Assembly: GCA_018302545.1 (NCBI GenBank)
Contig: JAGVZM010000002.1
Coordinates: 2,198 to 66,197 of the forward strand
DNA length: 64,000 nucleotides
Origin: Candidatus Woesearchaeota archaeon
GTDB taxonomy: Archaea; Nanobdellota; Nanobdellia; SCGC-AAA011-G17; GW2011-AR18
Reading direction: 5' to 3'
Shown one piece after another: positions 149-63,337 of this stretch (positions are counted from its first letter, which is position 1; each line of letters starts with the position of its first letter). Below the pieces are notes generated by a model. It was not told where the DNA came from. It saw only the letters and a list, made by a program, of their open reading frames with translations, and did no database searches. The position numbers and the translations under genes were made by a program.

Positions 149-1393
149 TCACCATTTCTTTTCAGCTCCACTAAACTCTAAAATAAAAGCATGCAACCAT
201 TGCATACTTCTAAACAAGGGATATATAAAGATGTAAATAAGGGAAGGTATATAAAACTTCCATTTCTCGCCAACATATTTATGTGCTGCTAAGTATAGAT
301 ATAACCCTAAGAACAAAACAACTAAACTTGGAAAAAGTAAATTCCAGTTTAAATTTAAAATAAATTGAAGGAGTGTAGGAAAATCAAATTCAAGAAAAGC
401 AAGTTTCATTATATAAATCTTAAAAGCTAAATCAAGAAATAAAGTAACTATATGATAACCAAACAGACCAATAGAAAAGAATACACAAAGTAAAACAAAA
501 ACTTCTAAAGGAATTTGAAACATGCCTAATAGACCATAGTTTTTATTTAATATCATTTTTTTGTATTTTAAATTGTTATACATAAATCCTCTAAACCATC
601 TAACTCTCTGCATCCACATTGTTTTTATTTTAGTAGGCACTTGAGTTCTAAAATTGCCATGTTCACACATTACAATCCTATAATCATTATATCTTAGTCT
701 CATAGCAATCTCAAAGTCTTCAGTTAAATTGCCAACATCAAAGCCGCCAATCTTTTTTAAAATACTAGTTCTAAATAAACTAAGTGCATTAGTAATATGT
801 AGAGTATCTGCAGTTCCTAATAATTTCCTAACAAAAGCAGCCATTACATATTCCAAGTTTTGCATCCTAGCAATGAAATTTCCTTTATTCTTGATTAAAG
901 TAATAGCAACAACAGCCGCAACATCAGAATTATTTTTATCATAAAAATATTTAACCATATTTTTTAATAAATTTTTATCAGAAACAGAATCAGCATCATA
1001 AACCCAAAAATATTCTCCAGTTGCTTCCTTGAGAGCAGTATTCAATGCTCCGCCTTTGCCTAAATTTTGATTGTGTTTAATTAGTTTAATTTTAAACTTA
1101 GACTTAGAAATAAAATTATTAAGAACTTTAATAGTATTATCCTTACTTTTATCATCAACAACAATAACCTCTAAATTATTAGTAGGATAATCCTGAGAAA
1201 AAATGGATTTTAAAGTTTGAATAACAGCTTTTTCCTCATTCCAAACAGGAACAGCAACAGTAATATTAGGAAAGGTTTTGAGATCTGGGAGTTTCTTATC
1301 ATAATATTTAGTAGCAAAGTTAAGTATAATCCATAGTATAGCTACAAAAGTAGATATAAATGAGATAATCCAAATATAAATTTCAAATAGCAT
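149..1393 (-). CDS. family-2 glycosyltransferase, processive (membrane-integrated) synthase type
   Basis: 414 aa; N-terminal TM; GT-A core VAVPVWNEE...VVDDKSKDNT, YDADSV (DxD), and QRVRWFRG (QxxRW processivity motif) followed by several TM helices. Confidence 0.8.
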   Translation of the reverse strand: MLFEIYIWIISFISTFVAILWIILNFATKYYDKKLPDLKTFPNITVAVPVWNEEKAVIQTLKSIFSQDYPTNNLEVIVVDDKSKDNTIKVLNNFISKSKFKIKLIKHNQNLGKGGALNTALKEATGEYFWVYDADSVSDKNLLKNMVKYFYDKNNSDVAAVVAITLIKNKGNFIARMQNLEYVMAAFVRKLLGTADTLHITNALSLFRTSILKKIGGFDVGNLTEDFEIAMRLRYNDYRIVMCEHGNFRTQVPTKIKTMWMQRVRWFRGFMYNNLKYKKMILNKNYGLLGMFQIPLEVFVLLCVFFSIGLFGYHIVTLFLDLAFKIYIMKLAFLEFDFPTLLQFILNLNWNLLFPSLVVLFLGLYLYLAAHKYVGEKWKFYIPSLIYIFIYPLFRSMQWLHAFILEFSGAEKKW

Positions 1394-8785: not shown

Positions 8786-9097
8786 TTTATCAACTCCAAA
8801 TAAGATGGTATATAAAATATAATGTAAATGCAATAGCCTAAAGGCTATGCCACCACTACAGAACAAACTAATAAAAACAATACAACACTGAAATTATTGT
8901 TTCTAATCATAAAAAAAAGATAATTAAAAGATATTAAAACCTTTCGATTGAAAACATTTTTAGATTTTAAATAAAAAAGACATAAAAAACTATAATGAAA
9001 AACAGCAAAAACTTTAATAAGAGTAATTTAATCAAAAACAATATTGGGCCTGTAGCTTAACCTGGGAAAGTACACGACTGAAGCTCGTGTTATTGTG

Positions 9098-9129
9098 ACT
9101 GATTAACAGGAATTGTTAGTTGGCAATAA
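9098..9129 (+). other. tRNA-Phe intron 1 (32 nt, T-stem position 51/52), BHB type
   Basis: Central helix ATTG/CAAT (9092-95/9124-27), 5' bulge TGA (9096-98), 3' bulge AAG (9128-30), 9-bp inner helix CTGATTAAC/GTTAGTTGG (3 G-U); outer helix weak. Confidence 0.7.
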
Positions 9130-9137
9130 GGTTCAAA

Positions 9138-9155
9138 TGAGCTTGTCTCTGAAAT
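9138..9155 (+). other. tRNA-Phe intron 2 (18 nt, T-loop position 59/60), BHB type
   Basis: Outer helix GG/CC, central helix TTCA/TGAA (9132-35/9150-53), bulges AAT (9136-38) and ATT (9154-56), inner helix GAG/CTC with CTTGT loop; boundary could equally be written 9139..9156. Confidence 0.75.
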
Positions 9156-9329
9156 TCCCACCGGGCCCAGATTTTAATTTAAATCCAAAAATAAGATAAA
9201 ATACTTATATCCTACAAAAACATGAGGGTATCTCAACTTGCATTTAATTGTGAATATACTAGAAAGAATTCGGGAATATGGTGCAAATAAAAGAATAATC
9301 AAACTTAAAAAGAAATCAAAATCTAAAAA

Positions 9330-55061: not shown

Positions 55062-55108
55062 GTATTTAAAGTTTCATAAAATTTTGAAATCATAGTCCCG
55101 TCGTCTAG

Positions 55109-55131
55109 ATTAGTTTAAAAACTAAAGACAA
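55109..55131 (+). other. tRNA-Gln intron 1 (23 nt, D-loop after A14-G15), canonical hBHBh' motif
   Basis: Outer helix GTC/GGC (55100-02/55133-35), central helix GTCT/AGAC (55103-06/55126-29), bulges AGA (55107-09) and AAC (55130-32), inner helix TTAGTT/AACTAA with a TAAA loop. Confidence 0.75.
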
Positions 55132-55154
55132 CGGCCCAGGATCGAGGACTCTGG

Positions 55155-55167
55155 ATCAATAGGAGAA
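55155..55167 (+). other. tRNA-Gln intron 2 (13 nt, position 37/38)
   Basis: Anticodon stem as outer helix, central helix CTCT/GGAG (one G-U), bulges GGA and AAA; no real inner helix (relaxed hBH). Confidence 0.7.
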
Positions 55168-55403
55168 ATCCTTGGACGGCAGTTCGAATCTGCCCGGGAC
55201 TATTTTTCCAATAAATTTAAATAACTTTAGTCTTAATCTATTTTCATGAAAACATCAAAGCTAATACAAAATAAGTATTTTTTCTTAGCCATGCTTATGA
55301 TGTTCTAATAGCCTAAAATATTTAGGAGGCCATTGCAATGATAAAAAACAACAAACAGATAGAAGAAGGAACTTTTAAATATCTAGAACTATCAAAGAAA
55401 AAA

Positions 55404-61557: not shown

Positions 61558-62373
61558 TTATAAAGATTTTGGGAAGCTTTTATAGAAAGAATAAGGGTCT
61601 AAATCTCCTTTAAGAATTAATTCTCTTTGTGGCAAATTAGTATGAGTAGGACAAAAACCAAATTTTTTCCAAACTAAATATTTAGTTAAATGCTTTCGAG
61701 AATTAAAACTAATAGTTTTCATCCATTTTTCTAACATATATTCACCAGAAATTTCTAATTGATTAGAGATATGGGTCTTTTCATATCTTTTCTTTGGAAA
61801 ATTAAATAAAGTAGATGTTTTGAAATTTAATTCTAATAATTTTTCATTAATTTGAGAAACTAAAGAAAATGAGCTAGAATTAAAACTAATAACTGGATAA
61901 GAATGATAAGTATTTTTTCGTTCCTTAAATGTTAAACAAAAATCAGAATCAGCCAAACCTCTAATAAAATCATTAAGAAATCTAGGTTCGAGTATAATAG
62001 AAGATATAAGATGATTAACTTTTGGACCAACTGGAAAATTAAGGGAAGTACTAAGAAAAGTAAAAATACCTTTGGATTGAGTAGACAATTTAAGGAAATC
62101 TCCTGAGTCCCTATAAATTTCATAGATCCTCAAGTTTTTATTAAATAATTTTTTAAACAATTTTACAAAAAAAATTCTATAAAAAATAGATTCATCTATC
62201 AAATGTCCGGCATATTCTAAAGAATAATAATATTTTTTAGGGTTTCCAAGATGGCCGTCACCCCAATGAATCCCTGAAAAATAACTTAATTCTCTAGTTA
62301 ATTTTGTGGGAATATTGATCTTATGAGAGAGGTCATAATTACTATATTGCACATTAGAAACGTCTAAATTCAT
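61558..62373 (-). CDS. free-standing double-motif LAGLIDADG homing-endonuclease-like protein
   Basis: 271 aa; motifs YFSGIHWGDGHL and FIRGLADSDFCL about 110 aa apart; lies between tRNA-Asn and tRNA-Ile on the same strand. Confidence 0.65.
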   Translation of the reverse strand: MNLDVSNVQYSNYDLSHKINIPTKLTRELSYFSGIHWGDGHLGNPKKYYYSLEYAGHLIDESIFYRIFFVKLFKKLFNKNLRIYEIYRDSGDFLKLSTQSKGIFTFLSTSLNFPVGPKVNHLISSIILEPRFLNDFIRGLADSDFCLTFKERKNTYHSYPVISFNSSSFSLVSQINEKLLELNFKTSTLFNFPKKRYEKTHISNQLEISGEYMLEKWMKTISFNSRKHLTKYLVWKKFGFCPTHTNLPQRELILKGDLDPYSFYKSFPKSL

Positions 62374-62433: not shown

Positions 62434-62491
62434 GAAAAGTTGTGAAGAACATAAACGCCCTAGGCGGGACTCGAACCTGCGACCCCTTGAT

Positions 62492-62505
62492 CTCTGCTCA
62501 GTAAG
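62492..62505 (-). other. tRNA-Asn intron 3 (14 nt, position 37/38)
   Basis: Central helix CTGT/GCAG (one G-U), bulges TAC and AGA; cuts leave CTGTTA|A. Confidence 0.65.
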
Positions 62506-62512
62506 TAACAGT

Positions 62513-62534
62513 TTCACAGTCGTTATGTAGAACA
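62513..62534 (-). other. tRNA-Asn intron 2 (22 nt, anticodon stem 30/31)
   Basis: Bulges TGT and AAA flank CAC(T)/(T)GTG; inner helix GTT/GAC; removal turns CTTG...A into the 5-bp stem CTTGA/TCAAG. The 31/32 alternative would leave a U-U mismatch. Confidence 0.55.
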
Positions 62535-62549
62535 CAAGTGCTCTACCTG

Positions 62550-62565
62550 TTGCTCCCTAATAGGT
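62550..62565 (-). other. tRNA-Asn intron 1 (16 nt, D-loop after A14-G15)
   Basis: Central helix GCTC/GAGC, bulges AGA and AAC (identical to the tRNA-Gln D-loop intron), inner helix CCT/AGG; outer helix poor (relaxed BHB). Confidence 0.65.
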
Positions 62566-62779
62566 CTGAGCTACTAGGGCGTCTAAGAATTAGGCAACTA
62601 AAATTCTTTAAAAGCTTTTCTAAGATAAAAAATAGAATAAAAAAGAGTAAAATTATAAATTAGAGTGTAGCCCTGCTGATTACGCTTATTTTCATAAAAA
62701 GCCAAAGCTTCAATCAACAAGCTTAAGTACAGGGCCTTAAAAAAGAAACCTTTTTTTAATATAAAGTTTTCTAAAAAAT

Positions 62780-63337
62780 ATGATAGAAGCAAGATGGAAA
62801 ATAGAGTCTTATGAAGATACAAGAAATAAAATTCTAGAACTAAAAGCAAAACAAAAAGGAAAATACTCAGCAACAGATATAATTTTTATTCCTAAGAATA
62901 ATAAAAGCCTAAATAAAGAATTTATAAGAGTAAGATCCTACATTGTAAACAATTGGAATACCAAAAATGTTGTGCTAACACATAAAGAAACAAGATGGAT
63001 TAATAATTTTAAAGAGGATATAATTGCAATTAAAAGAGAATTTGACAAAGAACAAGAAGCTATAAAATTTATAGAAGAACAATATAAAAATAGCTTAAAA
63101 GAGTTAGTAAGATTCAAAAGGGAAGGAGAAGATTTTGAAATAAATAATAACAAATTATTTTTAGAAACATTAGAATATTTAGGACCAACAATAGAAATAG
63201 AAACAGATTCAAAAGAATTATTAATAGATTTAGAAAAACAACTAGCTTTAAAAGAAAGAATAACACAGTCTATACCAGAAACAATAAGGTTATTGAAAAA
63301 CAATGAAAGTTTATCACGGTTCTCCAAAAAAGATTGA
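62780..63337 (+). CDS. CYTH-domain protein (class IV adenylyl cyclase / triphosphatase family)
   Basis: 185 aa; N-terminal IEARWKI (ExExK-like), FIRVRS, LTHKE, RFKREGEDF, LEYLGPTIEIE. Confidence 0.5.
   Translation: MIEARWKIESYEDTRNKILELKAKQKGKYSATDIIFIPKNNKSLNKEFIRVRSYIVNNWNTKNVVLTHKETRWINNFKEDIIAIKREFDKEQEAIKFIEEQYKNSLKELVRFKREGEDFEINNNKLFLETLEYLGPTIEIETDSKELLIDLEKQLALKERITQSIPETIRLLKNNESLSRFSKKD

Follow-up and report, generated by a model that had tools for sequence, protein, structure and literature searches.

Archaeal transfer RNA (tRNA) genes with up to three bulge-helix-bulge (BHB) introns are established, mainly from Thermoproteales, and three is the published maximum of introns per archaeal tRNA gene (PMC8450103, PMC4033280). 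Members of this order average 0.84 introns per tRNA gene, with 71 introns in 46 genes in Pyrobaculum calidifontis (PMC8450103), and the published list of non-canonical positions includes sites 30/31, 53/54 and 59/60 (PMC4090602). For the DPANN archaea, a survey that includes one Woesearchaeota genome reports an L3 loop in the splicing endonuclease (EndA), numerous disrupted tRNA genes and predicted tRNA sets that are incomplete, and attributes the gaps to disrupted genes that go undetected and need manual curation (PMC5829648). Here we analyse a tRNA-Asn(GUU) gene within a 64,000-nt stretch of DNA (assembly GCA_018302545.1, contig JAGVZM010000002.1, positions 2,198 to 66,197; the window). On comparative sequence evidence, and with a probability of about 0.9, we take it to be a functional tRNA-Asn(GUU) gene of Candidatus Woesearchaeota (DPANN) that carries three protein-spliced BHB-type introns at 15/16, 30/31 and 37/38. 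An initial annotation of the locus had described three-intron tRNAs as rare and known mainly from Thermoproteales, in agreement with the sources above (PMC8450103, PMC4033280).

The introns interrupt the D-loop, the anticodon stem and the canonical site of the anticodon loop (Table 1). Removal of the three segments leaves the 73-nt product GCCCTAGTAGCTCAGCAGGTAGAGCACTTGACTGTTAATCAAGGGGTCGCAGGTTCGAGTCCCGCCTAGGGCG, with the D-loop AGCAGGTA, the anticodon arm CTTGA-CTGTTAA-TCAAG and the discriminator G73. The coordinates, the three removed segments, the 73-nt product, its D-loop, its anticodon arm and G73 had all been given in the initial annotation and, read on the minus strand, proved exact. 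ARAGORN identifies the spliced 73 nt as tRNA-Asn(gtt). The product forms 20 of 21 stem pairs, the sole exception being A51·C63, and holds the conserved tertiary nucleotides U8, A14, G18G19, U33, A37 and UUCGAGU. In the E. coli system the identity elements of tRNA-Asn are the anticodon G34 U35 U36 and the discriminator G73. Here the CUGUUAA loop and G73 are both present, and both are invariant across all orthologues.

The evidence that carries the assignment comes from these orthologues. Homologues of the open reading frame (ORF) directly downstream served as the synteny anchor and gave further tRNA-Asn loci, on metagenome contigs of related Woesearchaeota/Nanoarchaeia. A pattern scan of a genome collection returned four irrelevant Marinococcus tRNAs and one useful archaeal match, and most matches in a scan of metagenomes were high-GC bacterial tRNAs or 3′ ends resembling transfer-messenger RNA, which were discarded. 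Two uninformative loci were left out: L041 ends before the tRNA, and at L043 (Diapherotrites) no tRNA was found upstream of the homologous ORF. The resulting tRNA-Asn series spans zero to four introns at seven sites (15/16, 17/18, 30/31, 37/38, 48/49, 53/54 and 59/60), and all of the spliced products are tRNA-Asn(GUU) of 72–75 nt.

At L025 the genomic DNA is uninterrupted over all three junctions of the window gene, and its positions 6–49 are identical to the predicted product. The two genes thereby combine an identical mature segment with wholly different intron sets, placed in the 5′ half of the window gene and in the T-arm (53/54 and 59/60) of L025. The orthologue at L030 is intronless, and the D-arms and anticodon stems are uninterrupted in L027, L037 and L040. 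The junctions are thus fixed by exon homology with the orthologues, independently of BHB criteria, and both the Asn(GUU) identity and the three junctions proposed in the initial annotation are borne out. In L008 the D-loop intron lies two bases later (17/18, with a TCAG/CTGA core), and its removal results in the same D-loop, AGCAGGTA. The exon segment ACTGTTA is invariant in all 14 orthologues examined.

The cloverleaf is conserved by compensatory change. Across 10 orthologue products, 98.6% of the cells of the cloverleaf are paired, compared with 31–47% in slid controls, and both sides have changed in 10 of the 21 pairs, with pair 28:42 appearing as A-U, G-C, C-G and U-A and pair 27:43 as C-G and U-A. 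The acceptor, D, anticodon and T stems all covary, and the covariation score was reached by none of 500 shuffles. The exons of L008 and L033 are 93% and 88% identical to those of the window gene, and their introns 39–66% and 44–79%, respectively. Among the relatives the exons are conserved and covary, and the introns are diverged or absent. The mismatch A51·C63 recurs in five other tRNA-Asn genes, and because it is common to all six genes with a GCAGG/CCCGC T-stem, it is, judged from these sequences, a lineage trait and not decay.

The genomic setting is consistent with this assignment. The window is archaeal and AT-rich (~29% GC), with topoisomerase VI genes and an archaeal-type tRNA-Ile near the tRNA-Asn gene, and a protein identical to that of a neighbouring ORF is annotated as coming from a Candidatus Woesearchaeota archaeon. 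On direct reading of the sequence, the TATA-like part of a promoter-like element is centred ~29 nt upstream of tRNA position 1. The orthologues in L004, L025, L027, L037, L038, L040 and L042 have a similar (A)AAGNTTTTTAA(A) motif at a like distance upstream.

Table 1. Coordinates and layouts of the features discussed. Positions refer to the window; the last ten rows give the intron sites of tRNA-Asn in the window and at orthologous loci.
Feature	Position	Strand	Description
tRNA-Asn(GUU) gene	62456-62580	minus	125 nt, 4 exons + 3 introns, CCA not encoded
Exon 1	62566-62580	minus	tRNA positions 1-15: acceptor 5′ strand, U8 A9, D-stem 5′ strand GCUC, A14 G15
Intron 1 (15/16, D-loop)	62550-62565	minus	16 nt, ACCUAUUAGGGAGCAA, HBh′ motif
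Exon 2	62535-62549	minus	positions 16-30: remaining D-loop, D-stem 3′ strand, A26, anticodon-stem 5′ strand C27-G30
Intron 2 (30/31, anticodon stem)	62513-62534	minus	22 nt, UGUUCUACAUAACGACUGUGAA, relaxed BHB, holds decoy UCU
Exon 3	62506-62512	minus	positions 31-37: A31 C32 U33 G34 U35 U36 A37, with GUU anticodon
Intron 3 (canonical 37/38)	62492-62505	minus	14 nt, CUUACUGAGCAGAG, BHB
Exon 4	62456-62491	minus	positions 38-73: A38, anticodon-stem 3′ strand, variable loop GGGUC, T-arm (with A51·C63), acceptor 3′ strand, G73
Promoter-like element GAAAAGC-TTTTAAAG	62606-62620	minus	TFB-recognition-element (BRE)-like + TATA-like, archaeal type; putative function
tRNA-Gln(CUG) gene	55094-55202	plus	109 nt, two introns, unannotated
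tRNA-Gln intron 15/16 (D-loop)	55109-55131	plus	23 nt, core GUCU/AGAC, bulges AG|a + aa|C
tRNA-Gln intron 37/38	55155-55167	plus	13 nt, core CUCU/GGAG
tRNA-Phe(GAA) gene	9046-9169	plus	124 nt, two T-arm introns, unannotated
tRNA-Phe intron 51/52	9098-9129	plus	32 nt, core AUUG/CAAU, inner helix 11 bp
tRNA-Phe intron 59/60	9138-9155	plus	18 nt, core UUCA/UGAA
ORF of the 271-aa protein	61558-62373	minus	free-standing, directly downstream of tRNA-Asn
Conserved structured RNA	62666-62736	minus	~71 nt, just upstream of tRNA-Asn
Spurious ORF	62598-62873		overlaps the ~71-nt RNA
Window, L004/L016, L033			introns 15/16, 30/31, 37/38
L008			introns 17/18, 30/31, 37/38
L036			introns 30/31, 37/38
L038			intron 15/16
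L040			introns 37/38, 53/54
L037			intron 53/54
L025, L027			introns 53/54, 59/60
L042			introns 30/31, 37/38, 48/49, 59/60
L030			intronless
L007, L013, L014			intron 37/38

A scan for BHB geometry, defined as a 4-bp helix between two 3-nt bulges with G·U allowed, shows a BHB or a relaxed form of it at each of the three junction pairs. At intron 1, G10–C13 (GCUC, 62571-62568) pairs with GAGC of the intron (62555-62552) in 4/4 central pairs, flanked by the bulges AG|a and aa|C and closed by a 3-bp inner helix CCU/AGG; an outer helix is lacking, which makes this an HBh′ motif. The intron 3′ end GAGCAA at the 15/16 site is common to L004, L033, L038 and the window. Neither the D-loop intron motif nor the A51·C63 mismatch formed part of the initial annotation. 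At intron 3, C32–U35 (CUGU, 62511-62508) pairs with GCAG (62497-62494) in 4/4 pairs between the bulges UA|c and ag|A, so that the CUGU/GCAG motif with its bulges UAC and AGA stands as it had been proposed. The outer helix of this motif is the anticodon stem, which has 1 bp only while intron 2 remains and is complete after intron 2 removal. The canonical 37/38 intron is found in 10 orthologues, and its intron strand varies with pairing kept (GCAG, ACAG, AUAG and GUAG).

The anticodon-stem intron is less regular. C25–U28 (CACU, 62540-62537) faces UGUG (62518-62515) with three pairs and a U·U at the fourth position, between the bulges UG|u and aa|A, with an inner helix GUU/GAC and a 2-bp outer helix of A23G24 with C32U33. 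The CAC/GUG pairs and both bulges of the initial annotation are correct, but the strictness of the motif was overstated, given the fourth pair U28·U. Among orthologues with the same 30/31 site, L004, L036 and L042 have a fully paired core (4/4), and L008 and L033 one with 3/4 pairs. The fourth central pair is U·U in the window, C·U in L008, A-U in L004 and L036, and U·G in L042. In L033 a change in the intron makes it G-C, and there the mismatch, a U·C, falls at the third pair. The 30/31 helix is often imperfect because position 28 is constrained by its mature partner, position 42. Over the whole series, the central helix is 4/4 in 22 of 28 orthologue introns (after correction of the L025 59/60 boundary). 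The intron strand also tracks the exon strand between different tRNA genes, with GCUC/GAGC in tRNA-Asn versus GUCU/AGAC in tRNA-Gln, and UUCG/CGAA in tRNA-Asn versus UUCA/UGAA in tRNA-Phe. For the three homology-fixed junctions of the window gene, the chance of obtaining cores of 4/4, 3/4 and 4/4 is ~8e-5.

From the established archaeal pathway we infer how this gene would be expressed. A 125-nt precursor would be transcribed from the TATA-like promoter ~29 nt upstream, and each exon-intron junction would fold as a 4-bp helix between two 3-nt bulges, inside which the archaeal splicing endonuclease EndA would cut. An RtcB-type ligase would then join the four exons into the 73-nt tRNA, to which CCA would be added post-transcriptionally. 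The core of intron 2 (C25–U28) would have to form ahead of the D-stem and the anticodon stem, since it uses C25, the partner of G10, together with positions 27 and 28 and therefore excludes both mature stems. With intron 1 still present, G10–C13 would be held by the intron and C25 left free, and all three cores can coexist in the primary transcript. Intron 2 would probably be removed early and intron 3 afterwards, because the outer helix of intron 3 completes only after intron 2 removal, and the motif of intron 1 would be independent of both.

How far a single sequence can decide among splice solutions has to be weighed before the alternatives. BHB geometry alone is weak evidence, because 745 of the 4505 junction pairs in the gene (16.5%) have at least 3/4 central pairs, 101 of them with 4/4. 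We searched exhaustively all sets of up to three BHB-like deletions that leave 71–76 nt, and in a second search all unconstrained one- and two-deletion products. The three-intron Asn solution ranked first, with 20/21 stem pairs, all seven conserved nucleotides and the best BHB sum. Several other three-deletion solutions tie with it on the crude score of stems and nucleotides, some of them with a UCU anticodon, and unconstrained two-deletion products also tie on the crude cloverleaf score. The initial annotation had called its choice for intron 2 the only one to give A31-U39 pairing; that choice is right according to the orthologues, but its uniqueness was overstated. Because other splice solutions tie, we do not use single-sequence uniqueness as evidence: the Asn solution is not provable from one sequence alone, and the orthologues decide. 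The same freedom of choice is what speaks for a chance tRNA-like arrangement, in which the introns would be an artefact of selecting among deletions, as the loose BHB criteria are so widely satisfied within the gene and ~10,500 tested splice combinations reach at least 18/21 stem pairs. This explanation is scarcely credible, since the orthologues fix the junctions without any BHB criterion, all four stems covary and the three-intron solution heads the exhaustive search; orthologue junctions and covariation together refute it. Nor is a tRNA-Arg(UCU) with two introns, namely the D-loop intron and a 36-37-nt intron 3′ of a loop GUUCUAC, anything but very improbable. ARAGORN with introns allowed does give Arg(tct) i(38,36) after removal of intron 1, and unconstrained two-deletion products with the UCU loop equal the Asn score at 20/21 pairs. 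However, the 37/38 junction of such a tRNA has no BHB (GUUC faces GCAG, 2/4 pairs), the sole nearby 4/4 motif (pre-tRNA coordinates 54/91) yields an 8-nt loop, and G32 would be unusual. The UCU segment lies inside intron 2, where L033 has GTTCACC and L008, L036 and L042 have unrelated sequence, whereas ACTGTTA is invariant and L025, L027, L030 and L037 have a plain tRNA-Asn at the same locus. The initial annotation had already set the Arg(UCU) reading aside for want of a BHB, and we reject it on the same ground, on the replacement of UCU in these four orthologues and on the other comparative data.

Several observations weigh against a functional three-intron gene. The minimum-energy fold (-42.8 kcal/mol) holds the motif of intron 1 only, and forcing all three cores gives -32.9 kcal/mol, a cost of ~10 kcal/mol. 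The core of intron 2 also faces competition from an 8-bp helix (GUAGAGCA/UGUUCUAC) in which the 3′ side of the D-arm pairs with the 5′ part of that intron, and folding of the precursor and intermediates gave no support to the motifs of introns 2 and 3, supporting that of intron 1 alone. To these are added the core of intron 2, a relaxed form with an imperfect U·U fourth pair rather than a strict BHB, and the A·C mismatch in the T-stem of the product. The mismatch, the imperfect intron 2 motif and the absence of two of the three motifs from the minimum-energy fold could also point to a decaying tRNA-Asn pseudogene whose insertions stay unspliced while a working tRNA-Asn is encoded elsewhere in the genome; the search for tRNA-Asn in this genome covered the 64-kb window, which leaves room for a second copy outside it. 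We nevertheless give decay only a slim chance. The exons are conserved, with changes that compensate one another, and the introns are not; six genes of different genomes have the A·C mismatch in common; and the promoter-like element is conserved. Moreover, every relative examined has an intronless or differently interrupted tRNA-Asn at the locus, and in the related genome L004 a single gene with this 3′ half turned up when the genome collection was scanned for the pattern. A functional tRNA-Asn(GUU) gene with three introns is the explanation that best accounts for these comparative data.

The number of introns at this locus reaches beyond the window gene. On scaffold ANAN16-1 scaffold_145917 (ENA ERZ28563803), positions 957-1116 (+), the syntenic L042 orthologue is a tRNA-Asn for which four BHB introns are predicted. 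Every one of them has 3-nt bulges and 4/4 central pairs, and the spliced 73 nt are again tRNA-Asn(gtt). These four predicted introns would exceed the published maximum of three.

Genes of this type are poorly served by standard tools, as the initial annotation had anticipated. On the raw tRNA-Asn gene, ARAGORN in its default mode reports no tRNA, and at 14.1 bits the Rfam tRNA model stays below its cut-off of 29. With introns allowed, ARAGORN takes the raw gene for Ser(tga) and, after removal of intron 1, for Arg(tct), so that the gene is either missed or mis-assigned. Two further unannotated tRNA genes lie in the window. The first, tRNA-Gln(CUG), gives on splicing a 73-nt tRNA that ARAGORN identifies as tRNA-Gln(ctg), and was undetected by ARAGORN in its default mode and with introns, by Rfam at the gathering threshold and by a sensitive Rfam scan. 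The other, tRNA-Phe(GAA), splices to a 74-nt tRNA-Phe(gaa) and was undetected by ARAGORN in both modes and by Rfam at the gathering threshold. In all, seven introns were found in the four tRNA genes of the 64-kb window, a very small sample. ARAGORN and the Rfam tRNA model detect one of these four genes, and the missed three carry all seven introns. As three of the four genes escape both tools, tRNAs missing from DPANN genome bins need not reflect a true loss of decoding capacity but can be an artefact of detection.

The tRNA-Asn gene is flanked by two conserved features. A free-standing gene for a 271-aa protein lies 83 nt downstream, upstream of tRNA-Ile(GAU). The protein has two LAGLIDADG-like motifs, GDGHL and GLADSDF; it had no match in Pfam, NCBIfam or single-sequence PDB searches, and the profile of its family matches intein and I-DmoI LAGLIDADG endonuclease domains (E = 2e-12). 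In nearly all relatives this LAGLIDADG-like gene accompanies tRNA-Asn in synteny. Frameshifts split it in L004/L016 and in L040, and it is absent beside the tRNA-Asn genes of L007 and L013, which have the canonical intron only. On the other side, just upstream of tRNA-Asn, lies a conserved structured RNA of ~71 nt with a 9-bp lower stem, an internal loop, a 7-bp upper stem, a GA-containing internal loop (UGAUU/AUGAA) and a covarying apical hairpin, and with ACA directly after the lower stem. Its layout is that of an archaeal H/ACA pseudouridylation guide. Conservation of this RNA extends to L004, L025 and L027; it had no significant match in Rfam, and is overlapped by a spurious ORF (Table 1). 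At L027/L028 (positions 1000-2700), an insert of ~1.4 kb separates the H/ACA-like RNA from tRNA-Asn; it holds small genes with weak or faint Pfam matches, MazE-antitoxin-like and PBECR2-like, and may be an integrated element beside the tRNA.

A neighbour-joining tree of the neighbouring protein interleaves the intron patterns, which is a hint of patchiness only, as the tree is rough, includes some partial or frameshifted sequences and has no support values. Interleaved in it are the 5′-half set (15/16 + 30/31 + 37/38) and the 3′-half set (53/54 ± 59/60), in close relatives with near-identical mature tRNAs. In phages, free-standing endonucleases act with neighbouring introns in what is termed ‘collaborative homing’. 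One might imagine that ongoing gain, loss or exchange of introns makes the tRNA-Asn locus of this clade a hotspot, with turnover driven by the LAGLIDADG-like gene via double-strand breaks and gene conversion; we regard this as unlikely, and the link between the endonuclease-like gene and intron turnover is speculation.

Two aspects of the locus bear on wider questions. The mechanism of gain, loss and movement of archaeal tRNA introns is still unknown (PMC4090602), and the syntenic tRNA-Asn genes, with zero to four introns at seven sites in near-identical mature tRNAs, form an unusually clean natural series, from a lineage whose intron positions shift at an unusual pace. An HBh′ motif without an outer helix and a core with 3/4 central pairs are likewise concrete substrates for the specificity of the DPANN L3-loop EndA, which is proposed to be broad (PMC5829648). 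Our literature search, of incomplete coverage, returned no description of this gene, of its orthologue series or of a four-intron archaeal tRNA.

Among the closest known systems are the three-intron tRNA genes of Thermoproteales (Pyrobaculum, Thermofilum and Caldivirga; Sugahara et al. 2007/2008, as cited in PMC4033280, PMC4090602 and PMC8450103). Common to these and the window gene are three introns with BHB or relaxed motifs, one canonical and two non-canonical, interdependent motifs in which one intron must leave before the motif of its neighbour completes (PMC8450103), and a 30/31 site that is on the list of non-canonical positions (PMC4090602). In contrast to these thermophilic crenarchaea, the host here is an AT-rich (~29% GC) DPANN Woesearchaeote; the DPANN EndA is reported to have the L3 loop, to be mostly alpha4 and to be without the crenarchaeal loop (PMC5829648); and site 15/16 of the window gene is missing from those listed in PMC4090602. 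The disrupted tRNAs of ARMAN-1/2, Nanoarchaeum equitans and Woesearchaeota/Pacearchaeota (Kaneta et al. 2018, PMC5829648) belong to the same superphylum and have multiple introns at non-canonical sites, although the part of that survey consulted gives per-genome proportions and not three-intron genes or turnover at a single locus. A gene of C. merolae (PMC3728597) also has three BHB-type introns, one of them in the D region, one at 37/38 and one elsewhere, and there a splicing order following BHB stability has been demonstrated experimentally, providing a model for the order proposed here; it differs in being a eukaryotic nuclear gene served by the eukaryotic Sen complex, with its third intron in the T-loop and not in the anticodon stem. 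Methanopyrus kandleri tRNA-Glu(UUC), as described in PMC5829648, combines a D-loop HBh′ intron with the canonical 37/38 intron, like introns 1 and 3 here and like the tRNA-Gln gene of the window, but its D-loop intron lies at 20b/21 instead of 15/16 and its introns number two, not three. Archaeal tRNAs with three introns have been described before, as have DPANN tRNA genes with heavy disruption, and the woesearchaeal tRNA-Asn(GUU) gene is a further case of this known kind.

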